A DNA stretch of 64,000 nt from a virus. Taxonomy: Duplodnaviria > Heunggongvirae > Uroviricota > Caudoviricetes. This document shows positions 5,819 through 64,000 of this stretch, piece after piece; the first letter of the stretch is position 1, and each line of letters begins with the position of its first letter. The position numbers were made by a program, and so were the translations under genes. The DNA lies in the IMG/VR virus record IMGVR_UViG_3300021963_000042, positions 1-64,000 of that record; one strand, written 5' to 3'. The notes beneath the pieces are model-generated. The model made no database searches. It had not been told where the DNA came from and worked only from the letters and a program-made list of their open reading frames with translations.

Positions 5819-5826
5819 AATGTTCC

Positions 5827-6183: not shown

Positions 6184-6208
6184 AACATTCCTTTTCAAAT
6201 CAAGCATT

Positions 6209-6460: not shown

Positions 6461-6472
6461 TTTATACTCCTA

Positions 6473-7036
6473 TTATACACTATTTTGATTTATCTGTAAA
6501 TTTTTTGTTGGAACATCAAACACAAAAGTAATGCGAACGCAATCACCAATGTTGTCAGTTCCATGTTCAAGTTTATTGTTAAACCAGAGTAACGTCCCTG
6601 GCTCAACATCATAATGTTCATCGCCTACATAATATCTATACCTTCCCTGTATAGACAGATGATAACGATCTCTTGTTTGATAGTAGTCGCCAATATCAAT
6701 GTGTTTGCCAACCTTTCCACCAACAGGAAGTGACAAGAAACCGCAACGAGAAAACTTGCCAAAGTTTCTCTTCATAAACCCAATAACTTCTGTGTGATGT
6801 TTGCAAGCTGGAGTTGGAATGCAAATCTCTGTGTCTCCGACGTATTGATCAAGCGATTCTACGCCACCCATAACAAGTTGTAGAACACCTGCTTCTACTT
6901 CTGGGAAACCACGATCTAACATAGACATCGCACCATCAACCTGTCTCTGTGAACCCCAATCTTCTGGATGTGCTTGTAACTGTTTCAGTATCTTAGAAAC
7001 ATTCAATCCAGTTTTGATGATGCGTATATTCTTCAT
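6473..7036 (-). CDS. cupin / 2OG-Fe(II) oxygenase-like (Asp/Asn beta-hydroxylase-like)
   Basis: 187 aa. GKHIDIGDY (HxD), LEHGTDN (H) and RITFVFDV (R). Confidence 0.45.
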   Translation of the reverse strand: MKNIRIIKTGLNVSKILKQLQAHPEDWGSQRQVDGAMSMLDRGFPEVEAGVLQLVMGGVESLDQYVGDTEICIPTPACKHHTEVIGFMKRNFGKFSRCGFLSLPVGGKVGKHIDIGDYYQTRDRYHLSIQGRYRYYVGDEHYDVEPGTLLWFNNKLEHGTDNIGDCVRITFVFDVPTKNLQINQNSV

Positions 7037-7653
7037 TTAATGTTTACTATTGACATGTCGTTACCAAGTTCACCACGAAGGAACACATTGAAAGACAGCG
7101 AGTATCTGGTTTTATCTGATGTATTCGGTTCGACTTTATGTAGAATATGTGATGGGAAGATCAAAATATCATTATCATATGGGTAGTGTGCCCACGATGG
7201 CGAGTTAAACAAATTTAGGTTTGAATATTCTACACGGATAGCTGGTGGAAAGATATTTGATGGCGAACCAATATCAAACACAATCTCTCCTGTTGTTTCG
7301 TCTGTTTGAATATAAACGACGCCAGACAAAAGAGAATTGTCATGTCTATGTAGTTGAGCAGCATCACCCTTCTCATGTTTCACAACCCAAGAGTTAGTTA
7401 TGTAAAACTCAATGTGAGGTGCTACAGACAACCCATTATAAACATAACGATCGAGGGCAGACTTGATCTTCTGTTTTAAAGAAGCAAAGTCTTCTCTGTC
7501 CAATACAAACTTATCAGCAGAGTACTTCCCATCATATATCAAGGAAGTTACTCTACTCAACTCATCTGATGTGATGGGTTCAATCTTTGATTGATAGATT
7601 GGTGTAGAAAATAATGGGACGATGTTATCCAAAGAAGTCCTCCAGAGATGCAT
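7033..7653 (-). CDS. 2OG-Fe(II) oxygenase (TIGR02466-like paralogue)
   Basis: HRHDNS...SGVVYI...HILHKV...RYSLSFNV. Track ORF extends to 7731. Internal Met start chosen to match the paralogue N-terminus (LFSTPIYQS). Overlaps the 3' end of gene 43. Confidence 0.55.
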   Translation of the reverse strand: MHLWRTSLDNIVPLFSTPIYQSKIEPITSDELSRVTSLIYDGKYSADKFVLDREDFASLKQKIKSALDRYVYNGLSVAPHIEFYITNSWVVKHEKGDAAQLHRHDNSLLSGVVYIQTDETTGEIVFDIGSPSNIFPPAIRVEYSNLNLFNSPSWAHYPYDNDILIFPSHILHKVEPNTSDKTRYSLSFNVFLRGELGNDMSIVNIK

Positions 7654-10111
7654 GTTCTTCCACCTTCCAGCCCAGTGGTTGAATAACAGTTTGAAGCGCA
7701 TCAAGGAAAGTCTTTTCAAACTGCAACTCATAATCTATGTATTCTTCCAAACCAAACTCTTTCGGTAGCACTTGCGGGAATGCAATCACATCTTCATTGA
7801 ATGGGTTTGGCTTCTTCACATACACAAACTTAATCTTCTCACCCTCTTTAATCAGCTGATACTTCTTGTCAAGACCAAGACGTTTAACGTGGTGATTGAA
7901 CAACAAAGAACCACGAACGTGGATAGGTGTACCCTTACCATAGATTGGGGAACCAGCATACTGGCGTAAACCATTTACACCACGAGGGAATGCTATTTCT
8001 TGGACAGGTAACGAGTTGAATTCTGCACGAAACTTTTCAATGAAGGAATGTAGTTTCGCTTGATCTCCCTCGAGAATAACTTCGATCGAACTCTTAAGTT
8101 TGTCACGAATAACAGCAGGTGTACTCGACTTGACCATCTCCAAGCCCATAACTTTGAGTTTAGGTTTCGCATACTGCACTCCCTCAGAATTGTGCACGTT
8201 CAGAATATATCGTTTCTTGGCAGTCCAGATACCCTTGTCAGCCAGAACCTCTCGCTTCATCTGCATCTTCTGAGAATATGCATTCATGTAGTCAGCAAGT
8301 TCTTGATAGCCTTTGTCGATGAAAGGTTGGATAACATCCTCGCAGATTTTATCCATGGTCTTGATCTTCTGTTCAGTAGTCTTACCTTCACAGATCTTCT
8401 CAATCAAAGTTTCAAGAGTCAGATAAATTGAGTCGGTATCGATGGCGATAACGAAGTCTTTACCTTCTGTCTTCAGAGTTTTGTTGAGGAATGCATTCAG
8501 CTTGTTAGCCATCCAACGAATAGACAACTGACCAGAAGTGGTAATACCTTCAGCCATACGGATATCGAAGTAACGGAAGTACTGGTTACCCATCGCACCA
8601 TAAGCAGAGTTTAGCGCAATCTTCATAGCCATCTGCAGGTTGTTCAATCGGCTAATCTCCTTCAGCAAGTGCTTCTGAGACTTGTCGTTCTGATATTCCT
8701 GCTCGACTTTCAACATCTGCTTCTTGAATTTGCTTCGGTCGACATACATCTTTTCCATCAACTCAGGCATAAACCCTTTGATGTCTTTGCGATATGTCCA
8801 ACCATTCGCAGTAACAGTCAAGTCCCTGCGCTTAGCATATGATGTGTCAACTTCTTGGTTCAACAACTTATCGACAGTACAAGAAATCTTTTCGCTGTTC
8901 AAAGTCTCTGGAGAAATGTTATACTGCATAATCAAGTGAGGATACAGACTGTTCAAGTCGAAGGAAGCAACCCACTTGTGTTGACCAATGATCGGGTCTT
9001 TAACAAACGCACCTTCAAATTGTTCGTTCTTGCTGGAGCCACTCTTCATAGGAATAACGATGTTCTTCTTACGCAGGTGGTTATAGATGATAGCATCCCA
9101 CATGCGAACCTGAGAGAACACGTCTTCGTAGTTAATCTTGGCGTTATATGCCATGGTCAGACACAACTCAATCAGTCGCATCTTGTCTTCCAGTTTGTCA
9201 ACCAACTCTACGTCGTGAATGTTATATTCAACGAACTGTTGCCAGTGGTTGGTATAGAAGTCTTTGAAGGTATCTCCAGGATTTTCTTTCTTCGCATCAC
9301 CTAGTTCTTCGCCAGCGATGTAATCGAGACGATATGATTCTTGCTTGGTATAAGTGAACTTCTTATACAAGTCAAGATAGTCTAGTTGTGAGATACCGTG
9401 AATGTCGAAAGAGATTTCTTCATTACCTTGAATGAAGATCTTGCGTTCGTTGATATAACCCCATGGCGAAAGTTTCGTAGCGATGGTTTCACCCAACTCT
9501 CGTTGAATGCGTTTCACCAAATATGGGATATCGAAGAAGCCAATGTTCCAACCTGTGACAACATCTGGATAGTTCTGCGACCACCAGATAATAAACTCTT
9601 TCAGAAGATGTTGTTCGTCTTTACAGTGCATGTAAATGACATCATCACGATTGTGAACAAACGCACGTGAACCGAAAGTGATTACACGTTTAGATTGAAG
9701 ATCTTTAACAGTGATTAGGAGAACCTCTTCGTTCGCCGAACGGATGTCAGGGAAACCAGATTCAGTTGCAGTCTCAATGTCGATGGTGAAGACTTTAATA
9801 TGTTCCATATCCCAGCGAATGTCACTCTCATAAGTGTCGCTAAGATATTGGCAGATATAATTGGTGTTACCGTAGATGTTGAAACCAGACACGTTCTCGT
9901 ATTGCTTAACGAACTCACGTGTCTCTTTAACAGTTCCAGGCTTGACTTCATCAACGCACTGACCATCGAGTGTGCGCCAATTACTTTCCTTCTTAGAGGA
10001 ACAGTAAAGGGTTGGGAAGAAATCTATTTTACGATTGAAGGGTCGTCCATTATCATACCCTCGGACAAACATTTTGTTACCAAAGGGAAAGACGTGGGTG
10101 TAAAATTGCAT
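7625..10111 (-). CDS. 43: DNA polymerase gp43 (family B)
   Basis: 828 aa. Exo motifs, motif A DLNSLYPH and motif C AIDTDS. C-terminus ends SLEDFFG. Confidence 0.9.
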   Translation of the reverse strand: MQFYTHVFPFGNKMFVRGYDNGRPFNRKIDFFPTLYCSSKKESNWRTLDGQCVDEVKPGTVKETREFVKQYENVSGFNIYGNTNYICQYLSDTYESDIRWDMEHIKVFTIDIETATESGFPDIRSANEEVLLITVKDLQSKRVITFGSRAFVHNRDDVIYMHCKDEQHLLKEFIIWWSQNYPDVVTGWNIGFFDIPYLVKRIQRELGETIATKLSPWGYINERKIFIQGNEEISFDIHGISQLDYLDLYKKFTYTKQESYRLDYIAGEELGDAKKENPGDTFKDFYTNHWQQFVEYNIHDVELVDKLEDKMRLIELCLTMAYNAKINYEDVFSQVRMWDAIIYNHLRKKNIVIPMKSGSSKNEQFEGAFVKDPIIGQHKWVASFDLNSLYPHLIMQYNISPETLNSEKISCTVDKLLNQEVDTSYAKRRDLTVTANGWTYRKDIKGFMPELMEKMYVDRSKFKKQMLKVEQEYQNDKSQKHLLKEISRLNNLQMAMKIALNSAYGAMGNQYFRYFDIRMAEGITTSGQLSIRWMANKLNAFLNKTLKTEGKDFVIAIDTDSIYLTLETLIEKICEGKTTEQKIKTMDKICEDVIQPFIDKGYQELADYMNAYSQKMQMKREVLADKGIWTAKKRYILNVHNSEGVQYAKPKLKVMGLEMVKSSTPAVIRDKLKSSIEVILEGDQAKLHSFIEKFRAEFNSLPVQEIAFPRGVNGLRQYAGSPIYGKGTPIHVRGSLLFNHHVKRLGLDKKYQLIKEGEKIKFVYVKKPNPFNEDVIAFPQVLPKEFGLEEYIDYELQFEKTFLDALQTVIQPLGWKVEEHASLEDFFG

Positions 10112-10255
10112 TATTCTTTTCTCTTATAATATACATTGATTCCATCAGAACCAAGACGCTCACAATTATCTATGAGCCACTTAGCCCAAACCCACCAATG
10201 CTCATCATGCCGATATCCATTACAAGCATGCAACGGAACACCATAATCATTAGTC

Positions 10256-10828
10256 TTATTTTCCATACATTAGTTGCATCGCATCCAGCGCACAGTCATG
10301 TACTGGGTGGTGCTTAATAACTTCGTGTCGTTTGAATGTAGGATGCGCAACATCGCAGTATCCATTAGTAGAACCAGTGAAGCAGTCTACTGCTGTTCTC
10401 ACATCCCTCCACATATTATACGTGGTAATTGGATTTTTGCCTACTTTAATACACAGACTGTCTATTGCAACTTGGTCAAGAGAACCACGTGCCCACATAG
10501 TTTGTTTAGCAGGTGTAGGATACTTATTCATATAATCAGTCAGCTGTTCGATAGCATCCTCAGCAAGAAGATCGTTTGGACTCGGATCGAAACTAACCTT
10601 ACGCACATATTCATGTTGCGTTTTCCACCAATCAAGAGTATCTTTGTTGACAGTCCTGCCGAACCTTTCAATCTGATCTTTCGCATTCAGCTTGACGAAG
10701 CAAGCATCGTTCAACAACTTTTGGTAGTCAGGTTGTTCCTCAGGATTGAACCACAACAGTGCTGCTGAAATAACAACAGTTGTAGATTCAATCCCAAGAG
10801 TTTCAATATCAAATACAAACATTACCAA
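10256..10828 (-). CDS. dexA: exonuclease A DexA (DEDDh 3'-5' exonuclease)
   Basis: 190 aa. FVFDIETLG, TLDWWKTQ and HDCALD align to T4 DexA. Confidence 0.75.
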   Translation of the reverse strand: MVMFVFDIETLGIESTTVVISAALLWFNPEEQPDYQKLLNDACFVKLNAKDQIERFGRTVNKDTLDWWKTQHEYVRKVSFDPSPNDLLAEDAIEQLTDYMNKYPTPAKQTMWARGSLDQVAIDSLCIKVGKNPITTYNMWRDVRTAVDCFTGSTNGYCDVAHPTFKRHEVIKHHPVHDCALDAMQLMYGK

Positions 10829-11145
10829 TCCCTTTTATATCCAACTTCAGTCACGAACGCTTTCATCTTTTGTTCATCATCCCAAGATTTGCAATACTCA
10901 TTTTCGGTATCACACATTGGAATAATTTCTTCCTTAGCAATCTCACGGCTGCTAAGAATAGTTTCACCCAACCAGTGTTGAGAAAACTCTTTCATTTCTT
11001 CCAGAGTCACGCTATCTTCTGCCCACTGAATCGCAGTACAACCAAACTGTTCCTCAGTAACATCAGCGTGATTGTCAGGCACTTCAATGATATAACGCAT
11101 ACGATATTGCGAAATAGTATCGACCAAAACATACTTACTCATCAA
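10822..11145 (-). CDS. hypothetical protein
   Basis: 107-aa ORF. Coding-dense minus-strand array. Confidence 0.3.
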   Translation of the reverse strand: MMSKYVLVDTISQYRMRYIIEVPDNHADVTEEQFGCTAIQWAEDSVTLEEMKEFSQHWLGETILSSREIAKEEIIPMCDTENEYCKSWDDEQKMKAFVTEVGYKRDW

Positions 11146-11494
11146 TCATCTCCTTAGTAATAGCAAGTGACTTCTCCAATGCTTTGCCAGCAACACGGAG
11201 ACCATATTCCATTTCACGATTTTTCCACATCAAGATATCTTTTTTCTTTAATGAATCTTGATAGTTATCGTATACTTCAAGCATATCCTTTTCCATTTTA
11301 TTCAGATAGTCCTGACAGTCAATCAGAGTTGCCCAAGATCCGTCCTCGAGTTTCGAGTATCCATTTTTCTCACGCAACTCATCAGTCCAGTTTTTACCAT
11401 GAATATAGGATGGAGCAGGAATAGTGACTACACCAGTCGTCAGCCCACGAATATATTCGATGCGCTCGCTGATTGATTCTCTACCGTAAAACAT
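11135..11494 (-). CDS. hypothetical protein
   Basis: 119-aa ORF. Confidence 0.3.
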   Translation of the reverse strand: MFYGRESISERIEYIRGLTTGVVTIPAPSYIHGKNWTDELREKNGYSKLEDGSWATLIDCQDYLNKMEKDMLEVYDNYQDSLKKKDILMWKNREMEYGLRVAGKALEKSLAITKEMIDE

Positions 11495-12024
11495 TATTCA
11501 TCTCCTTCATCTTCAACTTCTTGTTCACGACCATCCATGTCTGCATGCACTTCGCAAAGCACTTTGTGCCAACCATCAGTATAGCGTTTACCTGGAGCAC
11601 CACACTCTTCACATGTACGATAACTCATACTCTCTGCGAAAGAGATATAGCTGTAGTGTTTATCAGTTGCAGCCTGAACATAGAATCGTAGACCACCAAA
11701 CTTTTCTTTTACCTGAGAAGCAACTGGAACCTTGCTTGCTTCTTCTTCCATGACTTGTTTGCGCAGATCAATTTCGCCCTGTGTGATAACATCACCAGAA
11801 CCACCATACATCTTTTGCCCAACTTTGTCTTTGATAAACTCGTAGCGACTTTTGGCTGAATAGTATTCACTGCACAACTTGCCGCAGAGAACATCGATGA
11901 TGTTATACCAACCATCACCACATTCAAAACCCCAGCACATGGCTGTGTGTTGCATATTCGCATGACGATCTTTAAAGACCAGCGGATACTTTGCACATAG
12001 TGCTTCGTCTAGTTCTTTACGCAT
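11494..12024 (-). CDS. Cys-rich hypothetical protein (putative Zn-binding)
   Basis: CEECGAPGK...CEVHAD plus several CxxC pairs. Start trimmed to the internal Met to remove overlap. Confidence 0.3.
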   Translation of the reverse strand: MRKELDEALCAKYPLVFKDRHANMQHTAMCWGFECGDGWYNIIDVLCGKLCSEYYSAKSRYEFIKDKVGQKMYGGSGDVITQGEIDLRKQVMEEEASKVPVASQVKEKFGGLRFYVQAATDKHYSYISFAESMSYRTCEECGAPGKRYTDGWHKVLCEVHADMDGREQEVEDEGDE

Positions 12025-54040: not shown

Positions 54041-56812
54041 TTAATATGTTCCACCATCGATGTTGAAACCATCAATAGTAGAAGTTGCAGCACCAGCACC
54101 AGTAATATTAGTACCAACATACATTGCTTTAGCAACGGATAGACCACCTGAAAGAACAACACCAGCAGTACCAAGCGCAGTGGCGTCAGTAGTACCAGTG
54201 AAAGTAACTGCACCAGAAGCAGACAGAGTTGTAGCAGCTACAGAACCTGCGAAGCTAGAAGCAGTAATTGTCTTATTACTTAACGATTCAGCGCCAGCCA
54301 GAGTAGCCAAAGTACCAGTAGTTGGTAGTGTGACGTTAGTTGCAGCAGTAGAAGTAAGAGTAGTACTGAACGCACCAGCAGTTGCAAGAGTACCGCCAGA
54401 AACAATAGTCAACGTACCAGTTGTACTAGTGATTGTTAATCCGTTAACAGTCTTGTTAGTTAATGCTTCAGTTCCAGCTAAAGTAGCAAGAGTACCAGTA
54501 ACAGGTAGTGTTAATGTAGTATTAGCAGTAGCAGTTAAAGTTGTAGAGAACGCACCTGAAGTAGTAAGGTTACCACCAAGAGTGATAGTCTTACCGCTGT
54601 TGTTAACGCCAGTACCACCATATTGACCAGCAACAATAGTGCCTTGCCAAGTACCACTAGAAATAGTACCAAGAGTGGTGATAGAAGTTTGACCAACATA
54701 AGTGGCAGCAATATCAATTGCATCTGCAGAGATAGAAATGCGGTTTGCGGTACCAACTGCGTTTAGCGTATTACCAGTCTTAGTTAAACCATCGCCAGCG
54801 ATAATCTGACCAGCACCAGAGAACTGAACCCAGTTGATGTTGCTAGTACCAATAGTGATAGTACCAGTTGAAGTACAAACAAATCCGTTATTAGCGTTTT
54901 GTGTACCTTCTTCAACGAAAGTGAAAGCACCTGGAGTAACTTCAGGTTGTTGGTCAGCGTCAACAGAGCGAGTCAATACCCAGTTTGTAGAGGCAGTACC
55001 AACTGTAGTAACAGTATAGATACCGTTCTGAAGAGCGGATGCTTGGTCTTTAACAAGAACACGATCGCCAAGGACAGCAACAATAGAGTCAACTGTAAAG
55101 GCAGCTTGAGTACCAGCGTTAGTAAGAGTAGCACCAACACCAGAAGATCCGTTAGCATAAGTTGCAGTTAATGCAGTAGTTGTTGCGATGCGAACTGAAT
55201 CTTTAGGGTCTAGACCAGTCTTAACAGCATCAACGTAGTTCTTAGTAGCAGCATCAGTTGCTTGAGTAGGTTCAGCAACAGAAGTGATACGCTTGTTAGC
55301 GACGTCAACAGTACCAGTACCAGTTGGCACCAAGTTAACGCTGTTGTTGCCAGCAGCGCCTGCAAGAGTCAAGCTACCAGAAGTAGCAGTGATACTAGTT
55401 GCAAGAGCAGCGCCAAGAGTTGGTGTTACCAATGTTGGGCTAGTTGCAAACACTAGAGAACCAGTGCCAGTCTCATCAGAGATAACCCCTGCCAATTCAG
55501 CAGAAGTAGTTGAAGCGAATACGTTTAGTTTGTTTGCTACATAAGCAACAGTACCGCCACCACCAAACGCTACAGTAGAAGTATCAGTACCAGTAAATGT
55601 TAATGTATTGCTTGCAGTAAGAGTTTTACCGTCAGCGATAGTTAATGTAGAACCAGTCGCAGGAGCAGTAATCGCTACTTTGTTAATAGATGTAGCAGAA
55701 GCAACACCCAATGTAGGTGTCACTAAAGTTGGGCTAGTATTGAATACTAATAGACCAGAACCTGTCTCATCTGTCATTGAAGCCAGAAGTTGAGCAGAAG
55801 TAGCAACTAATGTGTTATTTGCTAAGTTGATGGTCTTGTTTGTAAGAGTATCAGTTGTAGCACGACCAACCAACTGGTCAGTTGCAGCTGGTAGAGTTAA
55901 AGTATTTGAACCCGCAACTGCTGCAGCAGCAACAGTAATTGTACCAGAAGTAGAACCATTAAATGTAGCGCCAGCAGATCCAATAGTTGGAGTGTTTAAT
56001 AGTGCGCTAGTTAATGTCTTGTTGGTAAGGGTTTGTGTGCCAGTTAATGTAACAACAGTAGAATCAATATTAAATGTTACATTATTCAGTGCTGAGTTGA
56101 TTACAGAATCAATACCAGTACCACCAACGAATGTCAGAGTATCTGTCGCAAGAGCGATAGTATCTGCTCCAGTATCAGCAGCAATACTTAAAGATGTTGT
56201 AATACCAACAGTACCAGCAGCAGTTAATTGACCTTGCGCATTAACAGTGAATGTTGGGATCGCTGTTGCAGAACCATATGTTCCAGCAGTAACACCAGTG
56301 TTAGTGATAGACAGAGTAGTTGTATTACCAGCATCGCTTACCGTAGAAGTGATACCTGTACCATTAACAATAGTACCGCCAACTAAGTCATAGATGTACT
56401 CAGCTAGTGTATCTGTTGTACCATTGATGTATGGGTTATTAAGGACTAACTTGCCAGTGCCGTTTGGAGTGATGTTAATATCACCATTGGCATTGGTAGA
56501 AGATAGTGTGCTTGATGTTAACTGTAAGTTACCAACTAGCCACTTGTCAATACTTCCTGTTGCGGAAAGAACTGGGATTGAAGATGCGCTCGTTGTTAAA
56601 GTTCCTGCAACGGATGCATCAATTAAGCCAGTATAGTAAGTACCACCAATAACCAAGTGGTTAGCAGCGTTACCCGAAGTTTCTACGCCCATACCAATGT
56701 ATAAGCGATTGCCCCCAGCGCCATTTAAGGCTGAGTATGCTAATTCGCCTGCAGCTAGGGTAGTTGGATTACCAGCTGTAGACGAGCGTTTAATTCTAAT
56801 AATAGAAGCCAT
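54041..56812 (-). CDS. tail fibre protein
   Basis: 923 aa. IRIKRSSTAGNPTTLAAGELAY N-terminal motif. Thr/Gly/Ala/Ser-rich beta-repeats with recurring TLTNKT. Confidence 0.55.
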   Translation of the reverse strand: MASIIRIKRSSTAGNPTTLAAGELAYSALNGAGGNRLYIGMGVETSGNAANHLVIGGTYYTGLIDASVAGTLTTSASSIPVLSATGSIDKWLVGNLQLTSSTLSSTNANGDINITPNGTGKLVLNNPYINGTTDTLAEYIYDLVGGTIVNGTGITSTVSDAGNTTTLSITNTGVTAGTYGSATAIPTFTVNAQGQLTAAGTVGITTSLSIAADTGADTIALATDTLTFVGGTGIDSVINSALNNVTFNIDSTVVTLTGTQTLTNKTLTSALLNTPTIGSAGATFNGSTSGTITVAAAAVAGSNTLTLPAATDQLVGRATTDTLTNKTINLANNTLVATSAQLLASMTDETGSGLLVFNTSPTLVTPTLGVASATSINKVAITAPATGSTLTIADGKTLTASNTLTFTGTDTSTVAFGGGGTVAYVANKLNVFASTTSAELAGVISDETGTGSLVFATSPTLVTPTLGAALATSITATSGSLTLAGAAGNNSVNLVPTGTGTVDVANKRITSVAEPTQATDAATKNYVDAVKTGLDPKDSVRIATTTALTATYANGSSGVGATLTNAGTQAAFTVDSIVAVLGDRVLVKDQASALQNGIYTVTTVGTASTNWVLTRSVDADQQPEVTPGAFTFVEEGTQNANNGFVCTSTGTITIGTSNINWVQFSGAGQIIAGDGLTKTGNTLNAVGTANRISISADAIDIAATYVGQTSITTLGTISSGTWQGTIVAGQYGGTGVNNSGKTITLGGNLTTSGAFSTTLTATANTTLTLPVTGTLATLAGTEALTNKTVNGLTITSTTGTLTIVSGGTLATAGAFSTTLTSTAATNVTLPTTGTLATLAGAESLSNKTITASSFAGSVAATTLSASGAVTFTGTTDATALGTAGVVLSGGLSVAKAMYVGTNITGAGAATSTIDGFNIDGGTY

Positions 56813-56824
56813 CTATGTTCTCCG

Positions 56825-57070
56825 TTAAAATTCGCCACCTTCCATGTCCTGTGCATCTAGCACAGTGGAAGCTGTCCATCTATTTGTTGTTGTTTTGTAA
56901 ATTAAAATTGACCCATCGATTTTATTAGTTGTATCAACATCAGCAATTGCTGACATAGATTCTACTACTGCTGGGTTGGACACGTTTGATGAAGAAAGTG
57001 TAAGAACACCTTCAGAGACTGCCACCTGAAGAGCTTCATCTGCTTGTACAATAGCGATTGTATCTGCCAT
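56825..57070 (-). CDS. hypothetical fibre-module protein
   Basis: 81-aa ORF. Confidence 0.3.
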   Translation of the reverse strand: MADTIAIVQADEALQVAVSEGVLTLSSSNVSNPAVVESMSAIADVDTTNKIDGSILIYKTTTNRWTASTVLDAQDMEGGEF

Positions 57071-57072
57071 AG

Positions 57073-57408
57073 TTATGATTGCGTTATTTGAGGTATTACT
57101 GTAACCACACCTTCTACAACTCGAGTTTTGGATCCAGATGGGGATGTAATTTCCACATCATACAACCATCTTCCTGCTGGAATTGCTTCGGACTGTTGTG
57201 GGGATAACTGTAAACGAATTTTGCCTGTATCTGCATTAAATACACTGGCAGTAAAATTATATGCTGTGCTTGAACTGTACGATTTTCTCATTTGAGACGC
57301 AACCGTATACCCAGTCAAATTTAATGGTTGGCCATTAGCTGCACTGACTGTAATTATATTGCTATAATTTGCACCAGCGTCAACAAAAAGGTTACTGATA
57401 GTCGCCAT
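57073..57408 (-). CDS. hypothetical (possible Ig-like) protein
   Basis: 111-aa ORF. Confidence 0.3.
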   Translation of the reverse strand: MATISNLFVDAGANYSNIITVSAANGQPLNLTGYTVASQMRKSYSSSTAYNFTASVFNADTGKIRLQLSPQQSEAIPAGRWLYDVEITSPSGSKTRVVEGVVTVIPQITQS

Positions 57409-57504
57409 GAATTCCCCAAAATTGTATTTCTCAACAGTTATTTATGTTATTTCAGATCGCTAAATATAACAGCTGCGAAGCGAATTTAACCTTATGGAGA
57501 TAAT

Positions 57505-58155
57505 ATGGAAGATCAAAATCAAACCAACTTACCTTCGCCATTAGTCGGCGATGCACCAACAGAAGACTATAACTTCGAATATTCACCAGTCGAAGAAACT
57601 TTTCAAAGACGTCTTTTCCCAACAATTTTCGCAAGCTATAAATTTGCAGATTGGGAAAAAATTGCCCAACCTCTGATCAATCTATCGAATGGATGGAATG
57701 TTCCAGATGAAGATCATGGCAAAGATATTATGGAATTAGATCATCCTGCAGTCAATAGACTGAAAGAAATCGTCTATGAGATCTGCGAAGGTCTTGAGTT
57801 ATCAAAAGACGACAATGGTAGAACACCAGTTATTGTAGGTTCAAATACATTGTTCCAACAAAAGGGCGAACACATTCCACCACATAACTACGAGTTCTCT
57901 ACTTTAGTATTCTCGTTCGTGGCGAATGTTGGGGAAAATGGTCCAATGACATACTTCCCAGATCCACGTGGTGGCGTACAAGCCTTGCGTAAAATTGTTT
58001 CTCAAAATCTAGTTAGCACAAGTTTCGGCATTAAGAGTCGCATTGGAGAAATCTATGTAACTCCAGGTTATGCTCAGCGTTACATCGAAACTAACTTAGA
58101 ATCAGAAACCCACGTAATCGTAAACGTCCGTGTTAACTTTGTTATGATTAGTTAA
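57505..58155 (+). CDS. divergent 2OG-Fe(II) oxygenase-like protein (TIGR02466-like)
   Basis: The only plus-strand gene, with a GGAG SD. RLFPTIFAS resembles the paralogue N-terminus. HIPPHNYEFSTLVFSFV and VNVRVNF fall at equivalent motif positions. Confidence 0.4.
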   Translation: MEDQNQTNLPSPLVGDAPTEDYNFEYSPVEETFQRRLFPTIFASYKFADWEKIAQPLINLSNGWNVPDEDHGKDIMELDHPAVNRLKEIVYEICEGLELSKDDNGRTPVIVGSNTLFQQKGEHIPPHNYEFSTLVFSFVANVGENGPMTYFPDPRGGVQALRKIVSQNLVSTSFGIKSRIGEIYVTPGYAQRYIETNLESETHVIVNVRVNFVMIS

Positions 58156-59205
58156 TATTTTCTTATTAACATAGAAGACTGAATAGTCTTCCAACAAAAA
58201 CAGCCAAGGTGCAATGGGATTTCCTAACGAGGAAATCCCTTTTGGCTTGTTCCACGCATAATAGCTATCCCCACTATATTCCTCAATTAGTTCTCGCATA
58301 ACCCATCTGTGGGTTAGTGGTTTACCCACATCTTTAGTGAATGGCTCTTTAGTCGTTAAAACATATTTCTGAAAGTCGTCAGTATTAAAGAAATGGTACT
58401 GATTGTTTTGTTGTTTGGTTGCAATTCTGGTAGAATACTCAGCTGTATACCAATCGAAATTAAAGATTAACCACCAACGCAAATCCCTAAGTGTCTCGAT
58501 TTTCTTTGGGCTGGCTTTAATAGAAGGCAGCAGGAATTCGTGCAACTCATCGTTTATGCATTTGGTGTAATCAATTAATGGGTCGTCATTATTAAATTGG
58601 TGATGGAAAAACGAAACCTCAGTTTTAACCTTTCCAGTAGTAAAATCGTCTACTGGACCAAATAACTGGTTTCCAAAAAACCCTGTTACAAAAATACTAT
58701 TAGAGTCACCATCATCAAAATCTCTAGTAGAAGAAACTTTAAATTTATACTTCACGCCTGAGTTTTTAATGCAATTATCAAATAGAGAACCCGATTCTAA
58801 AATAGAACTATATGTTCCATAAACTGTAATTTGACTGGGGTCGTCTACTTGTTGCATTAGAGAGAATAACGCCAGAGTGCTGTCAATACCACCACTCCAC
58901 ACTACAGTTATGGGTTTATCTAATTCTACCAATTCTTTCGTTCTTTCCTCAACACACTGTCTGAACGACTTATTAAAAGTAGAATCTATCAGTGGTATTT
59001 GCAAAAGACCAGGCTTAATATTCAAATAGTGTGGAGTCTGTCCAGTTCTATCGTAAACTGAATTCAAATTGAGTTTATGCTTATCGAAGAATGCATAAAG
59101 TTCTTTATGATTTGGAGCAAGATATTCATCTATATTTTCTTGCCTTTTGTTGATCAAGTCCAATGATTTAATCAAATTGATATTGTAGTATAATAACTGT
59201 TTCAT
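58102..59205 (-). CDS. PP-loop ATP pyrophosphatase (AsnB/ExsB-like)
   Basis: 367 aa. VVWSGGIDSTLALFSL (SGGxDS) at about residue 100. The 3' end overlaps the convergent plus-strand gene. Confidence 0.55.
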   Translation of the reverse strand: MKQLLYYNINLIKSLDLINKRQENIDEYLAPNHKELYAFFDKHKLNLNSVYDRTGQTPHYLNIKPGLLQIPLIDSTFNKSFRQCVEERTKELVELDKPITVVWSGGIDSTLALFSLMQQVDDPSQITVYGTYSSILESGSLFDNCIKNSGVKYKFKVSSTRDFDDGDSNSIFVTGFFGNQLFGPVDDFTTGKVKTEVSFFHHQFNNDDPLIDYTKCINDELHEFLLPSIKASPKKIETLRDLRWWLIFNFDWYTAEYSTRIATKQQNNQYHFFNTDDFQKYVLTTKEPFTKDVGKPLTHRWVMRELIEEYSGDSYYAWNKPKGISSLGNPIAPWLFLLEDYSVFYVNKKILTNHNKVNTDVYDYVGF

Positions 59206-59213
59206 AATTTCCT

Positions 59214-59242
59214 CAAAAACAAAAAAGGGAGCCTGAGCTCCC
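59214..59242 (-). terminator. intrinsic terminator (bidirectional hairpin)
   Basis: AAAAAA-GGGAGC-CTGA-GCTCCC-TTTTATTT. Near-copy of the gp23 terminator hairpin. Confidence 0.5.
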
Positions 59243-59266
59243 TTTTATTTAGACACTAAAATTTAA

Positions 59267-60214
59267 TTAGTGTAACTGAATCTTCTGAACCAAACCTGGA
59301 GTGAAGTAGTCAGCAAACTTCTCATATACTTTAGAAGTAACAGCTTTGAACTTGCTTTCTTCTTCAGCAGACATCTTAACAACTTCAACACCCTTTGCTT
59401 CACACTCAGCCAAAATCTCTGGAATGTTAGCAACAGATTCACGACGCTCTTTGCGAGCAGCGTTGAAAGCAGCAGTAGCCATGATCTCTTGAGTTTCAGC
59501 GTCAAACTGTTTCATGAAGTCTTGGTTAACGATGATAGAAGTCAAGAACAAGCTATGAGCAGTGTCGTTAACAACTTTGAAAGATTCGTTCTGGTTTAGT
59601 GGGAAAATACGTACGTATGTAGATTCACCAGCAGAGATAACACCAGCGTCAGCTGCTTCGTTCATTTCTTCAAGAGCGATGTCCTTGTTTGGAACTGCGC
59701 CAAGAAGTTTGAAAGTCTCAACAGCAACTGGGCTGCGAGAAGTGCGAACAGATTGACCTTCCCAAGCTGCAACAGTGTCAGCACGGAAGTTTGCTGGAAC
59801 TACACGGTAGCCACCAGAGTAAGTGAAAGACATAGCCTTGATATTGCTATTCTTAGAAACGCCAGCTAGCAACTCAGTACCAATCTCGCCTTCTAGAACA
59901 CGATCAGCATGGGCGTGATCTTGGAACAAGAAAGGAAGGTCTAGAGCGTGTAGGTCTTGATTATAGTCAGCCAACCAAGTAGTATAGATGTGGCTCATTT
60001 CGATAGCACCAGAATCAACCAACTGCATTAGTTCATTCTTAGTGATTTTCTTACCATCATTATACTTTGCAGAGTAGTCAGACAAAGAAAGAACTTCGAT
60101 GTCGAACATACCACCAGTTTGCTCATTTACTTCTTTAGAGAAGGACTCGGCTACTTTCAAAAATAGACCGATAGGCTCGTGGGCAATAACCCATTTAACA
60201 TGCTTCTTTTGCAT
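59267..60214 (-). CDS. DctP-type (TRAP) solute-binding protein homologue, no signal peptide
   Basis: 315 aa. KWVIAHEP, LDLPFLFQDHAHADRVLEGEIGTELL, YSGGYRV (conserved Arg) and GQSVRTSRSPVAVETFKLLGAVP align to DctP/SiaP. Confidence 0.7.
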   Translation of the reverse strand: MQKKHVKWVIAHEPIGLFLKVAESFSKEVNEQTGGMFDIEVLSLSDYSAKYNDGKKITKNELMQLVDSGAIEMSHIYTTWLADYNQDLHALDLPFLFQDHAHADRVLEGEIGTELLAGVSKNSNIKAMSFTYSGGYRVVPANFRADTVAAWEGQSVRTSRSPVAVETFKLLGAVPNKDIALEEMNEAADAGVISAGESTYVRIFPLNQNESFKVVNDTAHSLFLTSIIVNQDFMKQFDAETQEIMATAAFNAARKERRESVANIPEILAECEAKGVEVVKMSAEEESKFKAVTSKVYEKFADYFTPGLVQKIQLH

Positions 60215-60227
60215 TTATATCTCCTTG

Positions 60228-60554
60228 TTATTTTCTTAAATACTTAAGATGTTCAGCGCATCTAAGATCTAGTTTCCATTTTTCACCTTCAGCCGTAACC
60301 TCTAATACAATAATTGGTAGGTTCAGTCTGATGATTCTTTCCTTATATTTATAAACGAATTCTTTCTCTTCTTGCGATGCCTCGATTATAAAGTCGGGAA
60401 TCTGTATACTGAAGTTGTTATTCTGGAATTTGTTTTCTAAAGAATTGTGATAGAAAATATCAGCTAGTGTTCTTCGATTATAATTTGATACTGCAGTTCC
60501 ATATCTTGGATACCTATTGATATTCCATATGTTGCAGTCTAAAAATCCACTCAT
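60228..60554 (-). CDS. hypothetical protein
   Basis: 108-aa ORF within the cassette. Confidence 0.3.
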   Translation of the reverse strand: MSGFLDCNIWNINRYPRYGTAVSNYNRRTLADIFYHNSLENKFQNNNFSIQIPDFIIEASQEEKEFVYKYKERIIRLNLPIIVLEVTAEGEKWKLDLRCAEHLKYLRK

Positions 60555-60555
60555 T

Positions 60556-62019
60556 TTATTTAGGTTCTACTGGAACTTGGACTACTGGAATATTCAAAGG
60601 TTTGCGGACTTTCCAACTCTTTTTTCCAGTCTTCATATATTCGTTGTCGATTACCTGAATGCTAGTAACACCATCGAAACGAATTCGATCACCTTTAATC
60701 TCTGTCAAAACCAGACCATCAGTCATCTTGAATAGAGCAGCGCTCAACATCGCTAGGTTATACCAGAATAGGTTTTCGCAAGCCTGCTCCCAGTATTGAT
60801 CTTCTAAGAACAAACAAGCACCCTGACATAACTGTACAACTGGACAAGAAGGGCATTCTTTACGAGTAGACCAATGATAAGAGTTCGTTAGACGAATGTT
60901 ATCAAAATCTTCGATGTTTCCAATATTATGCTTGGTTAAGGAAGAAGTATTCTGACACGTAGTAACATTACCCTTCATATCGATGGCAATATTGTCTTCC
61001 TTATCCATACCACACTTTTGACCAACAGCTTCAGCTGGACGACCATAGACGATAGACTCAAAGAATGACTTGACCTTCTGATAGATAGTCCAACTAAATT
61101 GGTTCTTATTATCGATGGTTTCTTCAAATAAAGTATGAAGGATTTCTTTCTTCTCGTCTGTGGTTTGGAGAGAGTGAGTCATACCAGAGTCATCATATGG
61201 CAACATTAATTCTTCTGTAGTAACTTGAATTTCACGCTGGTCGACTCCAGGATTTTCAAATCCGACGTGTTTCTTATTGAGTTTATCCATAATAAAATTA
61301 CGGACAGAAGGAATAGAAACATTCTCACGTGTAAGAACACAGTTGAAAGTGAAACGTGTCAACCCCATAGTTTTCATAGCATAAACAACAGCGTCTTTTG
61401 CTACAGGTTCATCTAATGGATCTGGTCCACGATTCTGCGCATGCAGTGGTCCATCATGAGACATACCGATAGAAAACCCCATACGATTAAACCAATCAAC
61501 TTTTTCTCTAGTTAAAAGAGAACCATTGGTAACCATCATGAAACTAGCATTAGGGTAAACCTTCTTGATCTTTTCAGCAAGAGGTTTCAGTGTTTTCCAG
61601 TAAACCATCGGCTCACCACCCCAAAACTCAAGACGGAATTTATCATATGTTCCAAAGTTGAAATTCTCTTTCATCTTTTGGATCAATTCTTCCGCATCTT
61701 CTGGACCACCTACTGGGTCGTGTGGTTGGTGCGCTTGGTTACAGTAAGAGCATGCGTAGTTACACTTAAGACCCATCGTGATCTTAAGCGTAGTTGGCTT
61801 ACGGGATTTCTTACCGTGGAGTGCAGGATCGTGTGGGTTTGTAATATTTGCAGGTTCCCACACCTTTGCATTCATTTGATATTGAAGACCCTTACTCACA
61901 TGCTCGAGCGAGGGTCTTTCGTGCGTTTCTTCCCAATACATTTCAGATGTCATTGGGTCGTAAACCATATTAACTTTCACATCATTAGCCCCTTGTAGGA
62001 CTAGCGTAAATTTGCTCAT
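60556..62019 (-). CDS. radical SAM enzyme with C-terminal SPASM domain
   Basis: 487 aa. CNYACSYC (CX3CX2C) and C-terminal CPSCPVVQLCQGAC (CX2CX5CX3C). Confidence 0.7.
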   Translation of the reverse strand: MSKFTLVLQGANDVKVNMVYDPMTSEMYWEETHERPSLEHVSKGLQYQMNAKVWEPANITNPHDPALHGKKSRKPTTLKITMGLKCNYACSYCNQAHQPHDPVGGPEDAEELIQKMKENFNFGTYDKFRLEFWGGEPMVYWKTLKPLAEKIKKVYPNASFMMVTNGSLLTREKVDWFNRMGFSIGMSHDGPLHAQNRGPDPLDEPVAKDAVVYAMKTMGLTRFTFNCVLTRENVSIPSVRNFIMDKLNKKHVGFENPGVDQREIQVTTEELMLPYDDSGMTHSLQTTDEKKEILHTLFEETIDNKNQFSWTIYQKVKSFFESIVYGRPAEAVGQKCGMDKEDNIAIDMKGNVTTCQNTSSLTKHNIGNIEDFDNIRLTNSYHWSTRKECPSCPVVQLCQGACLFLEDQYWEQACENLFWYNLAMLSAALFKMTDGLVLTEIKGDRIRFDGVTSIQVIDNEYMKTGKKSWKVRKPLNIPVVQVPVEPK

Positions 62020-62057
62020 TAAAAATCCTTATAATATAGAACGGATAATATATTTAG

Positions 62058-63212
62058 TTACGCAATTTCAACCCAAAGTTCTGCCCAAGAAACGAATTTA
62101 CCAATGTTTAACTTAACCTTAAAGTAATCGCCAGTAGTTAAGCCGACAGTAGAAATTAATAGATTCTCACAGCCAGAATGTAATGTTGTCAATCTGTCTG
62201 TAGGATAGTTATGTGTATCTAGAAATTCTTGGGTAGCAGCATTAGGAGCTTCTGGATCGTATATATTAGAAACACGTGTCTTATTTGAAATACAGTTGAT
62301 GCATTCTACATCAAAGGTAGCAGCTGCTCTGGAACCAAGTATTGTATGCAATCTACTTCCGAAAATAACCTTAACATTATATGTATCAGAAGCTGGCAAT
62401 GTTACTTTAAATCTATTGCCAGAAGTAGGAGCAGCAGTTGCAGGTAAACCAAGTGAAGTGTCAATACCTTCAACAACTATTTCTTTTTGCTGTTGTAGTT
62501 CGACATATCCTGTAGATTTTGAAGTAGGTTTTACAAACTGCGTTAGAGCAGAAGTTAAGACTTTACCTTCAGAATCTAAAACTTCAAACGTCGCCAAAGT
62601 TTTCACATAAAAATTACACCAAATTTCATACTCTCTTTGAGTAACTTCAGTAACTTCAGCTGGAGTATTTTCAATAATACTGTCTAATACATTCACTTGC
62701 AAATCTTCAATGAAGAACATCAAAGTAGAACCAGTGAAACCAGAAAGTTCTTTATAGAAAGAATCTAAAACGAACAATGGTGTTTTCGTTGAATTAGACT
62801 GATAGCGATATTTGTTTAGATTGTAAAATAATTTTACATGAGAATCACTACCATTGATGTATTCTGTAGCAATATCATAAACATCGATTGGGTCGCTAAT
62901 AGTTCCTGTCTCTGAGTCGAACTCAACGATCCACTTGTAGTTATCCGTTTTCATTCTGAAGTCATCAGCAGTGAACGCACGTTCAGCTACAATACGAAAA
63001 TCAGCTGTTTCATGAACATCACGTTTTTCGTCAGGTGTATCTTCAGGTTTTGCTTCGTCTAGATCTGGATTTGCAGGAACAACTTCTTCCATTTTAACAT
63101 GGATAGTTTGTGTAGCAGCATCAAAGCGCATTGTGGCTCTGTGTTTGCTATCTCTTTCATAGACTTCTGTACCTTCGTTTGGTCTAATTACAGTTTTGAA
63201 AATTTTTAACAT
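62058..63212 (-). CDS. hypothetical protein
   Basis: 384-aa ORF between the Cys-repeat gene and the rSAM gene. Confidence 0.3.
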   Translation of the reverse strand: MLKIFKTVIRPNEGTEVYERDSKHRATMRFDAATQTIHVKMEEVVPANPDLDEAKPEDTPDEKRDVHETADFRIVAERAFTADDFRMKTDNYKWIVEFDSETGTISDPIDVYDIATEYINGSDSHVKLFYNLNKYRYQSNSTKTPLFVLDSFYKELSGFTGSTLMFFIEDLQVNVLDSIIENTPAEVTEVTQREYEIWCNFYVKTLATFEVLDSEGKVLTSALTQFVKPTSKSTGYVELQQQKEIVVEGIDTSLGLPATAAPTSGNRFKVTLPASDTYNVKVIFGSRLHTILGSRAAATFDVECINCISNKTRVSNIYDPEAPNAATQEFLDTHNYPTDRLTTLHSGCENLLISTVGLTTGDYFKVKLNIGKFVSWAELWVEIA

Positions 63213-63225
63213 TATGGTTCCTCAA

Positions 63226-63600
63226 TTAGCAGTTGCAAGCGCAGTTACAGTTACAGTTGCAAGCACAGTTACAGTTGCAATTAGATCTGTACCACTGGAA
63301 ACCGCCCATCGTATTATCTTGGTTGTCGTGACGGATACCATCAGTAGAAGCGTTAATAGCTCCACCAACAGAAGTGTTACGGAAAATATTGATACGTCTG
63401 TCAGTAGTAACACCGAAACCTAAGTCACCAGCATCACAGTTACCGCAGTTACAGTTAGCTCCGTTACATGCGCAGTTCCATGCGCAGTTAGCGTTTGGCT
63501 CTGTATAGGTTCTGTTGCCTGCGTCATAATAATTCCAAAATAAGTCTACAACGTCTGTGCCATCAGCACGTCTGTGTCCTGTTGCTCCGTGATAAGCCAT
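63226..63600 (-). CDS. Cys/Asn-repeat protein (RiPP-precursor-like or metal-binding fibre accessory)
   Basis: 124 aa, 15 Cys. NANCAWNCACNGANCNCGNCD internally and the C-terminal tail NCNCNCACNCNCNCACNC-stop. Lies 3 nt downstream of a fibre gene. Confidence 0.5.
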   Translation of the reverse strand: MAYHGATGHRRADGTDVVDLFWNYYDAGNRTYTEPNANCAWNCACNGANCNCGNCDAGDLGFGVTTDRRINIFRNTSVGGAINASTDGIRHDNQDNTMGGFQWYRSNCNCNCACNCNCNCACNC

Positions 63601-63602
63601 GT

Positions 63603-64000
63603 TTATTTCTCCAATTTCTCTAAACGAGTAGTTAATTCTTTAATAGTTTGTTGCTGTTCTTTAACTGCTTCGATAAGTAAACCGACAAGGTTTCCGTAAG
63701 CAACAGACTTAAACCCGTCTTGGTTCGTTTCAACAACTTGTGGAACAAAATCTTCGACTTCCTGGGCGATAACACCGATTCTAGGTTTTCCGTCTTGAGT
63801 ATAAGATACACCACGTAAATTACAAACTGTATTGACTGGACTATTTAGTGTTTGAATGTTCTGTTTCAAGCGCATATCAGACGCTTGAGTGAATGTTGTT
63901 GCAACGATAGCGTTAAAAGTATTTGTAGTTCCAGCCCAAGTGTTATTCGCTGCTAAAGAAGGTACGTCTGTACCGCAATCTAAAGTTGGGTTTCCGTCCT
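63603..64000 (-). CDS. tail fibre protein, C-terminal part (continues beyond the window)
   Basis: The frame stays open to the window edge. C-terminal S74-type chaperone LKQNIQTL...IGVIAQEVEDFVPQVV resembles the end of 49167-53414. Confidence 0.6.
   Translation of the reverse strand, partial: DGNPTLDCGTDVPSLAANNTWAGTTNTFNAIVATTFTQASDMRLKQNIQTLNSPVNTVCNLRGVSYTQDGKPRIGVIAQEVEDFVPQVVETNQDGFKSVAYGNLVGLLIEAVKEQQQTIKELTTRLEKLEK

Follow-up and report, generated by a model that had tools for sequence, protein, structure and literature searches.

Why would a T4-like phage keep a gene for a radical S-adenosylmethionine (SAM) enzyme among the genes for its tail fibres? The question is raised by a 64,000-nucleotide stretch of viral DNA (IMG/VR record IMGVR_UViG_3300021963_000042, positions 1 to 64,000; hereafter the window), part of a T4-like aquatic myovirus, in which an earlier note had pointed to a 487-amino-acid (aa) radical SAM/SPASM protein. 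We found that, in phages with unrelated backbones, the gene for this enzyme and genes for fibre or tip proteins whose (Asn-Cys)n C-terminus is under selection go together, whichever of the two is taken as the starting point. The reading that we put forward, with about even confidence, is that the enzyme is a maturase dedicated to fibre tips with (x-Cys)n tails, in which it would install Cys-to-Asn thioether cross-links. The argument turns on the following features of the window.

60556..62019, minus strand: gene for the radical SAM/SPASM enzyme, 487 aa, ATG start (open reading frame, ORF, with Pfam, NCBIfam and PHROG matches)
61741..61764, minus strand: codons for C86-X3-C90-X2-C93, the radical SAM [4Fe-4S] motif, invariant in two alignments
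60778..61014, minus strand: SPASM region, residues 336-414, with seven invariant Cys (TIGR04085; alignments)
63226..63600, minus strand: 124-aa Cys/Asn-rich protein with the Asn-Cys (NC) tail, the predicted substrate (ORF; 14 related loci)
63229..63282, minus strand: C-terminal tail NCNCNCACNCNCNCACNC, residues 107-124 of the 124-aa protein, with the stop codon next
63436..63489, minus strand: internal Cys-rich segment NCAWNCACNGANCNCGNC, residues 38-55 of the 124-aa protein, kept across the close family

The enzyme carries CNYACSYC, that is, the CX3CX2C motif at C86/C90/C93, just as the earlier note had described. It matched the Pfam families Radical_SAM (PF04055) at 42.6 bits (cut-off 29.5) and Fer4_12 at 28.8 bits (cut-off 22). 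The C-terminus had been called "twitch/SPASM" in the note. We found the NCBIfam SPASM model TIGR04085 at 37.4 bits over residues 336-406, above its cut-off of 27, and seven Cys in the arrangement C336-X13-G-X4-C355, C389-X2-C392-X5-C398-X3-C402 and C414. Since the model exceeded its cut-off and the seven Cys were invariant, the C-terminal domain is, judged from its sequence, a full SPASM domain and not a twitch domain. All ten Cys (three of the radical SAM motif and seven of SPASM) were invariant in two alignments, one with 17 and one with 50 homologues, whose identity fell as low as 33-43%; the glycine-rich SAM motif WGGEP was invariant on alignment as well. An AlphaFold2 model built from 50 sequences (predicted local distance difference test, pLDDT, 89.3; predicted template modelling score, pTM, 0.89) matched radical SAM structures with their partial TIM-barrel fold. 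The best match in the PDB was CteB (5WHY/5WGG, E 1e-14), followed by anSME, ChlB, TigE and SuiB, and the N-terminus was modelled as three beta strands plus coil. With cut-offs exceeded and motifs in place, the enzyme belongs to the radical SAM superfamily and its SPASM subfamily, and it is a predicted three-cluster-type radical SAM/SPASM protein.

Within that subfamily, the enzyme matched phrog_1802 (E 3e-63), which by profile comparison is a large family of its own: a profile search at E<=1e-30 gathered 522 clusters (50% identity), of which many were full-length and above 250 bits. A word-indexed protein search with the enzyme, at a threshold (E<=1e-10) that lets in other SPASM families too, listed 1,122 proteins. 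The best full-length NCBIfam alignments were to the ranthipeptide maturase PapB, DynA, CcpM, anSME and QhpD. PapB (NF047865) scored 76.6 bits for a cut-off of 340 (residues 77-403), the SCIFF maturase CteB/ScfB (TIGR03974) 44.5 for 425, anSME (TIGR03942) 62.4 for 349 (partial, residues 81-402) and QhpD (TIGR03906) 61.5 for 453 (partial, residues 21-403). Judged by the NCBIfam equivalogs, the enzyme is not a member of PapB, CteB/ScfB, anSME, QhpD, CcpM or DynA. The assignments to anSME, QhpD or a PqqE-like enzyme that had been suggested therefore gave way to a separate family, far below the equivalog cut-offs for these groups and for PapB. The broader expectation of a peptide- or protein-modifying enzyme, and not one of nucleotide or cofactor synthesis, was supported by the SPASM domain and by the nearest full-length and structural neighbours, which are maturases. 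MoaA (33.5 bits for a cut-off of 284) and viperin (57 for 180) aligned with the N-terminal core only, and QueE was absent from the best 25 of 51 NCBIfam matches.

What, then, would the enzyme modify? The 124-aa protein is kept in frame in 14 related loci, and it had no Pfam, NCBIfam or PHROG match, nor did F1 and F4, two other module proteins described below. All nine Cys of its tail are invariant in the close family while the codons TGC/TGT and AAC/AAT vary freely. The tail always has 18 residues, with only N, A or D at x and Cys as the last residue before the stop codon. This combination of invariant Cys, synonymous codon variation and fixed tail length indicates selection at the protein level. 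Across 90 distinct C-termini, 715 of 945 Cys (76%) had Asn directly before them, the residues at x being N (715), A (84), D (25) and Q (15), and 61 of the 90 tails had Cys as the last residue. The preference extended beyond the last 30 residues, a region free of the rule by which tails were selected: there, Asn preceded 228 of 322 Cys (71%) against an Asn frequency of 14.6%. Such tails end, for example, a 341-aa fibre (NCNCNCNCNCGK), a 74-aa protein (NCNCNCVCACNC) and an 84-aa protein (CACACNCGG).

The pairing of enzyme and tail was followed from both sides. Annotated phage homologues of the enzyme above 150 bits were found only in Ralstonia phage RSP15 (Ackermannviridae) and the Achromobacter phages JWF and 2-1 (siphoviruses), at 33-38% identity, with a weaker match in the Ralstonia jumbo phages RP12 and RP31 (27% identity, 127 bits). 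The homologues of RSP15 and JWF sit in tail-fibre regions, and the JWF fibre gp028 has NCNCDCNCNCSC directly before a Hint self-cleaving domain. Nearly all of 25 enzyme loci on viral contigs (33-93% identity) had an upstream ORF on the same strand that ends in (x-Cys)n. A scan covering 185,579 bacterial and archaeal species, with a single genome per species, gave 210 relatives, mostly from Alpha- and Betaproteobacteria, including Limnohabitans, Polynucleobacter, Burkholderiales, Rhodospirillaceae, Bradyrhizobium and Methylobacterium. Among the 57 listed prophage loci whose upstream DNA reached 3 kb or more, an NC-tail ORF lay 0.7-3.1 kb upstream on the same strand in 48; (xC)n was fused to Hint (...CDCQ-CFPAGT...) in seven and an Ala/Asp-Cys variant was present in one. 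Thus 56 of these 57 assessable loci carry such a tail, and none has the tail ORF downstream of the enzyme.

From the side of the tail, the viral collection was scanned with (AAYTGY)4, DNA coding for NCNCNCNC, which returned at least 120 loci. The repeat was classed as C-terminal when no more than 25 residues separated it from the C-terminus of an ORF segment of 60 aa or longer, as was the case in 71 of the loci listed. An enzyme homologue was present in 55 of these 71, always on the same strand; it lay 25-7,000 nt downstream in 52 loci and upstream in three, the latter from a distant radical SAM clade. As 15 of the remaining 16 have less than 2.7 kb of downstream sequence, 55 of the 56 assessable NC-tail loci listed carry the enzyme. 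Where the repeat was not C-terminal (short ORFs and AT-rich giant-virus contigs), the enzyme occurred in one of 49 listed loci, a Hint-like internal case. Fisher's exact test on 55/1 versus 1/48 gave p = 1e-27, a value that only describes the contrast because the loci are not independent. We also considered (AAYTGY)n as a non-coding simple repeat, which holds for the 49 loci and was rejected for the fibre tails on frame conservation and synonymous variation.

The phage backbones that share this pairing are unrelated: the T4-like window, the Ackermannviridae phage RSP15, the siphovirus JWF, a P2-like Bradyrhizobium prophage and a GpJ-type Ralstonia prophage. Across T4-like, P2-like, Ackermann-like and lambda-like phages and prophages, the enzyme gene follows the tail gene on the same strand at a distance of 0.03-3 kb. 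The module lies within tail genes in all lineages examined. In the Ralstonia pickettii GpJ-type siphovirus and Bradyrhizobium P2-like myovirus prophages, it comprises an NC-tailed protein, F1, an extra gene (a second radical SAM gene or a GNAT gene) and the enzyme. An upstream NC-tail ORF on the same strand at nearly all loci is also what the definition of a ribosomally produced and post-translationally modified peptide (RiPP) locus asks for, namely a precursor gene with a conserved core motif near the maturase. Comparative genomics strongly supports the earlier suggestion of the 124-aa protein or a fibre C-terminus as candidate substrate, and we consider the NC tail to be probably the substrate of the enzyme.

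Most carriers of the tail look like fibres. The bigger tail-bearing proteins are typical ones, with collagen-like repeats and an MQNYT.IPSS N-terminus as in JWF gp028; others have gp36-like or F2-like N-termini, and the N-terminal and central parts match tail-fibre PHROGs. The tail region itself had no match in the family libraries searched. Three fibres (L065, L081 and L133; loci from our searches are numbered with L) have the N-terminus of the window's Peptidase_S74 fibre and an NC tail in place of the S74 end. Since the same N-terminus occurs with either ending, the S74 chaperone and the NC tail seem to be C-terminal modules that can be swapped for each other. In JWF (5679-7130), L210, L181, L184, L186, L193, L197, L199 and L044 the (x-Cys)n repeat is internal and runs straight into Cys1 of a Hint domain (...NCNCSC-FPAGT...). 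Self-cleavage at Cys1, possibly via a thioester open to capture by a nucleophile, would leave the repeat as the new free C-terminus of the fibre. Because Hint cleavage would thus also expose the repeat, a free (xC)n end appears to be a common requirement.

The tail varies in composition. Small proteins downstream of a distant 370-aa SPASM enzyme end in ...CDCDCGDD (L101/L128/L144), Rhodospirillaceae prophages have the variant SYCSYCSYCSYCTYC...NCDCGD (L173/L176/L178), and L179 has ACDCACACDCACNC. What is constant is therefore a Cys at every second or third position, with Asn as the commonest partner. As a separate observation, L082, L108 and L056 have two to three paralogous NC-tailed ORFs (75-115 aa) in a row upstream of one enzyme; these small ORFs share the motif LSQFTNDLGNYG with full-length fibres and may be alternative tip cassettes.

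How might the enzyme act on such a tail? In the window, its substrate would be the 124-aa protein, coded two genes upstream, and the enzyme would be made along with the fibre genes. Reductive cleavage of SAM would give a 5'-deoxyadenosyl radical, which would take a hydrogen from the alpha or beta carbon of the residue paired with Cys, usually Asn. The Cys thiolate, held on an incompletely Cys-ligated auxiliary cluster, would then capture the carbon radical to form a thioether. Repeated along the tail, this reaction would build a ladder of covalent cross-links, which would lie within a chain or possibly join the trimer's chains to one another or the tail to F1. A fibre tip of this kind would be rigid, would withstand both reduction and proteases, and would be made in the reducing cytoplasm, in which disulfides cannot form but a thioether ladder could. 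The Ig-like protein F1 would serve as an adhesin or chaperone working with the tip, and 2-oxoglutarate (2OG) oxygenases and the PP-loop enzyme would add optional tailoring steps.

Given the tail as substrate, we rate thioether formation as slightly better than an even bet, by analogy. In structure, the thioether synthase CteB comes nearest. SPASM enzymes typically, and classically, act on Cys-rich C-terminal cores, and QhpD provides a precedent in which thioethers are placed inside a protein subunit (PMC10114670), which speaks both for the tail as substrate and for the chemistry. The streptococcal enzyme NxxcB accepts Ala, Gln and Asp besides its native acceptor Asn (PMC9389541); these are the residues found at x in the phage tails, and NCNC contains NxxC. 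The SPASM region of the phage enzyme also lacks the extra Cys of the anSME segment CGMNGTCTC, which fits a free iron site for the substrate thiolate of the kind proposed for sactisynthases and NxxcB (PMC9389541).

Several observations weigh against this proposal. The NxxC precedent does not account for the strict Asn-Cys adjacency, which includes isolated Cys; this adjacency may reflect links between adjacent residues, as in the Thr-Gln ether of TqqB, or a different reaction. The NCBIfam equivalogs scored 35-77 bits on the enzyme for cut-offs of 300-600, and none was reached. The best sequence-profile match of the enzyme in the PDB is TigE, which to our knowledge is not a thioether enzyme. A winged-helix RiPP recognition element was not evident in the enzyme model, and there was no PqqD match in the enzyme, F4 or F1 (Pfam, NCBIfam). 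Among the loci, the RSP15 fibre fragment ORF048 has a weak tail (...NTNCQCGN), one of the 57 prophage loci (L172) has no recognisable tail, and L103 is the sole listed viral locus with room for the enzyme that does not have it. The genomic linkage could reflect a shared fibre cassette and not an enzyme-substrate pair, and the loci are phylogenetically non-independent. An alternating Cys tail in a trimeric fibre could also bind metal.

Comparison with known systems places the proposed maturase close to several of them and apart from each. CteB and PapB, the SCIFF/ranthipeptide maturases, share the three-cluster radical SAM/SPASM layout and have Cys-rich C-terminal core substrates encoded beside the enzyme. 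Unlike them, however, the phage enzyme (77 bits for PapB, at about 19% identity) has no evident winged-helix recognition domain, and its target would be a fibre or tip protein of the virion, as long as about 620 aa, instead of an exported peptide of about 45 aa. The acceptor would be Asn next to Cys, whereas CteB and PapB use Asp/Glu at CX3D/E spacing. A SCIFF precursor has about 45 aa and six Cys, whereas the Cys-rich neighbour of the phage enzyme has 124 aa and another motif. NxxcB, which makes the Cys-Asn beta-thioether of the streptococcal RiPP NxxcA, is the only characterised radical SAM enzyme with Asn as native thioether acceptor, and its tolerated residues coincide with those of the phage tails. 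However, NxxcA is a short peptide under quorum-sensing regulation, and the NxxC spacing leaves Asn before an isolated phage Cys unexplained. NxxcB was compared by description, as the libraries used hold no model of it.

QhpD resembles the proposed maturase in that it forms several intra-protein thioethers in QhpC, a small Cys-rich protein that later becomes a structural subunit of a bigger assembly (PMC10114670). The acceptors in QhpC are Asp and Glu, however, and the qhpABC genes are not among the phage neighbours, which are fibre genes. On the structural side, the S74 chaperone, Hint self-cleavage and the disulfides that hold fibres in cyanophage Pam3, a case of covalent Cys chemistry in fibre attachment (PMC9942802), likewise target fibre ends or attachment points, but these are autocatalytic or spontaneous while the phage module has a separate radical enzyme, which could form irreversible links within the reducing cytoplasm. 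From these comparisons, the enzyme would work like a ranthipeptide- or QhpD-type maturase on virion fibre proteins, without the leader, peptidase and exporter logic of a RiPP.

In the rival that keeps the substrate and changes the chemistry, the enzyme would oxidise the Cys of the tail, in an anSME-like way, to formylglycine or a different electrophile derived from Cys, and the aldehydes would go on to react, for example with the neighbouring Asn amide, Lys or a receptor. anSME was the second-best structural match, its SPASM fold aligning end to end with the phage enzyme, and TIGR03942 gave the partial match over residues 81-402. anSME also acts on proteins and not on short leader peptides, consistent with an enzyme without an evident recognition element, and a modified Cys that reacts with its neighbour would suit the Asn-Cys adjacency. 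We nevertheless regard this chemistry as unlikely: the score of 62 bits is far under the cut-off of 349, the enzyme lacks the extra auxiliary-cluster Cys of anSME and thus a fully Cys-ligated Aux I signature, and the C/S-x-P/A-x-R sulfatase motif (CxPxR in its Cys form) is absent from the 124-aa protein and the other proteins neighbouring the enzyme, with no match to sulfatase families among 10 flanking gene products scanned. A different rival leaves the tail unmodified, as a metal or Fe-S clasp of the trimeric fibre, and has the enzyme act on F1, on another fibre or on a small molecule bound by the DctP-type protein of the module. The needle of T4 gp37 has His-x-His iron sites, and alternating x-Cys in a beta strand would put the thiols on one face, which would suit a threefold metal site. 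DctP is as conserved as the radical SAM enzyme and predicted to be co-transcribed with it in the lineage of the window, and F1 is always present. However, DctP is limited to the T4-like subgroup while the pairing of tail and enzyme is universal, F1 has no conserved Cys or other invariant residue, and Cys-rich C-terminal cores are typical of SPASM substrates (PMC10114670). A clasp by itself also leaves unexplained why a dedicated radical SAM gene travels with the tail through unrelated backbones, and we consider this rival quite improbable.

The small size of the 124-aa protein and its separation from the fibre in the window suggest a further possibility: it could give rise to a diffusible RiPP that acts as a toxin or signal once lysis frees it, in which case it would be no part of the virion and its fibre context would be incidental. 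RiPP-like viral clusters do exist, for example an 82-aa NC-tailed peptide with five radical SAM genes in L037. In most loci, however, this tail is part of a fibre of 200-620 aa, and the module always lies within tail genes. Pfam and PHROG searches found no leader peptidase and no transporter or exporter in the module, which therefore argues against an exported RiPP; this reading appears very unlikely. An enzyme of nucleotide or cofactor synthesis (like QueE, MoaA or viperin), carried as an auxiliary metabolic gene, is hardly credible at all. The partial viperin and MoaA matches (57 and 33 bits) cover the N-terminal radical SAM core and the nearby PP-loop protein has a faint QueC-like match, but these radical SAM matches are all below cut-off, the SPASM domain is complete, the structural neighbours are peptide or protein maturases, and the enzyme belongs to fibre modules in every lineage examined.

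The class of enzyme chemistry is known; if fibre tips are indeed matured by the dedicated enzyme, the novelty would lie in the kind of substrate, the motif of the tail and the role in phage biology. Homologues are named "radical SAM domain-containing protein" or "hypothetical protein" in GenBank and, for JWF, "anaerobic sulfatase-maturating enzyme". A full-text literature search, with most subscription journals outside its coverage, found no description linking these enzymes to fibre tails. The nearest mention found concerns pelagimyophages, in whose host-recognition clusters "radical SAM cassettes" were remarked on and left unexplained (PMC7029224); the module would give these cassettes a function. 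We propose tentatively, as the bolder and less secure step, that many phage lineages staple their receptor-binding fibre tips with a Cys-Asn thioether ladder. The ladder might include backbone rings of the thiomorpholine type between adjacent Asn and Cys, on the analogy of the ether that TqqB forms between neighbouring residues, and it might also link the three chains of the trimer or tie the tip to F1. This could be the first case of a virion structural protein modified after translation by a radical enzyme. Such stapling would be a cytoplasm-compatible substitute for disulfides. It would add a new covalent virion chemistry to the isopeptide chainmail of HK97 and to disulfides, and it would extend the radical SAM/SPASM "RiPP" toolbox to large structural proteins through a simple portable tag, (Asn-Cys)n. 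Fibre tips set which bacteria a phage infects and are engineered for phage therapy and diagnostics; if a large class of fibres does need the enzyme to mature, attempts to swap or express such fibres in its absence would not succeed. Phages and prophages of aquatic and soil Proteobacteria carry the family in abundance, and the idea is directly testable since cultured phages have the enzyme (Achromobacter phages JWF and 2-1, Ralstonia phage RSP15).

The enzyme gene stands in the window in the following company.

63603..64000, minus strand: 3' end of a tail-fibre gene (about 398 aa) with a Peptidase_S74 domain, cut by the end of the window
62058..63212, minus strand: F1, 384-aa multi-domain beta-sandwich protein
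60228..60554, minus strand: F4, 108-aa protein directly downstream of the radical SAM gene
59267..60214, minus strand: DctP-type (tripartite ATP-independent periplasmic, TRAP) solute-binding homologue, 315 aa, no signal peptide
59223..59246, minus strand: terminator-like hairpin, 10-bp stem plus T run
58102..59205, minus strand: PP-loop (SGGxDS) ATPase-like protein, 367 aa
57505..58155, plus strand: 2OG-Fe(II) oxygenase, 216 aa (phrog_81, E 1e-11)

Along the minus strand the order is S74 fibre, 124-aa protein, F1, radical SAM enzyme, F4, DctP, hairpin, PP-loop gene, the convergent oxygenase and further fibre genes. The position among fibre genes given in the earlier note agrees with this map, with the S74 fibre upstream of the enzyme gene and fibres of 923 aa and 1415 aa downstream. 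From the fibre through DctP the genes are co-directional, with gaps of 1 to 38 nt. DctP is followed by the first strong hairpin of terminator-like form, which closes the string fibre/NC protein/F1/radical SAM/F4/DctP. T4 late-promoter motifs (TATAAATA) occur twice in the 64 kb, no more than expected by chance, and sigma-70-like sites in the window were at the level of shuffled sequence. The S74 domain of the edge fibre was recognised by PF13884 (E 1.2e-9), with matches to fibre PHROGs as well. A "90-aa S74 ORF" was considered as a stand-alone gene and rejected: it is the end of the fibre gene leaving the window, whose frame is open to the window edge and whose full-length homologue in L003 has 398 aa.

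Other genes of the window specify a gp43-type DNA polymerase, a ligase, a helicase, a portal, a large terminase, a tail sheath and a major head protein, the last about 62% identical to its counterparts in Pelagibacter phage HTVC008M, Methylophilales phage Melnitz and marine cyanomyoviruses. A search of GenBank phages gave no near-identity DNA match to 56800-63900, and the window accordingly has no annotated or cultured close relative there. The same gene order is found in related contigs of about 170 kb, after a protein of about 2,090 aa. In pelagimyophages, the "host recognition cluster" sits downstream of VrlC (PMC7029224), and the gene order of the window matches it.

Among the partner genes, F1 is a constant one. 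Outside the close family, at least 48 loci have an F1 homologue placed between tail gene and enzyme, a divergent form (F20) included, and so do the two prophages described above. F1 is conserved only over its C-terminal 100 residues or so, and no Cys or other residue is invariant across the family. Its AlphaFold2 model (pLDDT 81) is a string of beta sandwiches with generic immunoglobulin (Ig)-like matches only. It is the fastest-evolving gene of the module, with 32-54% identity where the enzyme has 78-93% and the NC protein 56-91%, and it is 54% identical between otherwise near-identical phages (93% for the radical SAM enzyme). Such fast divergence is a pattern typical of receptor-contacting proteins and suggests diversifying selection for host range. 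F4 is kept in the close family and at two distant loci. By BLAST, neither gp029 nor gp031 of JWF could be connected with F1 or F4, and JWF may use an unrelated partner.

DctP matched its Pfam family at E 1e-42 over residues 20-301, and NCBIfam TRAP_S1 was above cut-off. The protein starts with MQKKHVKWVIAHEP, which, with the Pfam match beginning at residue 20, leaves no room for a signal peptide. At 77-97% identity, it is among the best-conserved genes of the module, comparable to the enzyme, and it is confined to the T4-like subgroup with only three distant loci. The PP-loop protein had weak AsnB and QueC-like matches, to the PP-loop only, and a PDB sequence search with it found nothing. Homologues occur in the distant loci L025, L043, L065, L079 and L133, the L025 copy adjoining the enzyme. 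2OG-Fe(II) oxygenases between the tail gene and the enzyme were of the types PF13759 (14 loci), PF13640 (five loci) and an unclassified HxD...H family (11 loci), and the oxygenase of the window is possibly an accessory tailoring enzyme. This oxygenase gene and the PP-loop gene converge, their 3' ends overlapping by 54 nt, and a second 10-bp hairpin lies at 58216-58239 within the PP-loop ORF.

Two tandem radical SAM/SPASM genes were observed in L148 (Ralstonia pickettii CP104381, 9009-11371) and L027 (1700-4003); in L148 a 335-aa gene overlaps the start of a 456-aa family member. This arrangement suggests two different radical modifications. L037 (IMGVR_UViG_3300009135_000020, 3051-11671, minus strand) encodes an 82-aa peptide ending in YSTACNCNCNCNCTRGIL, followed by five radical SAM genes with CX3CX2C on the same strand (587, 354, 403, 424 and 442 aa), of which the 442-aa product has the SPASM motif. 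It is a RiPP-like cluster with an NC tail on a viral contig, its enzyme belonging to a distant clade (about 27% identity), and peptides related to that of L037 are found in L089, L045 and L105.

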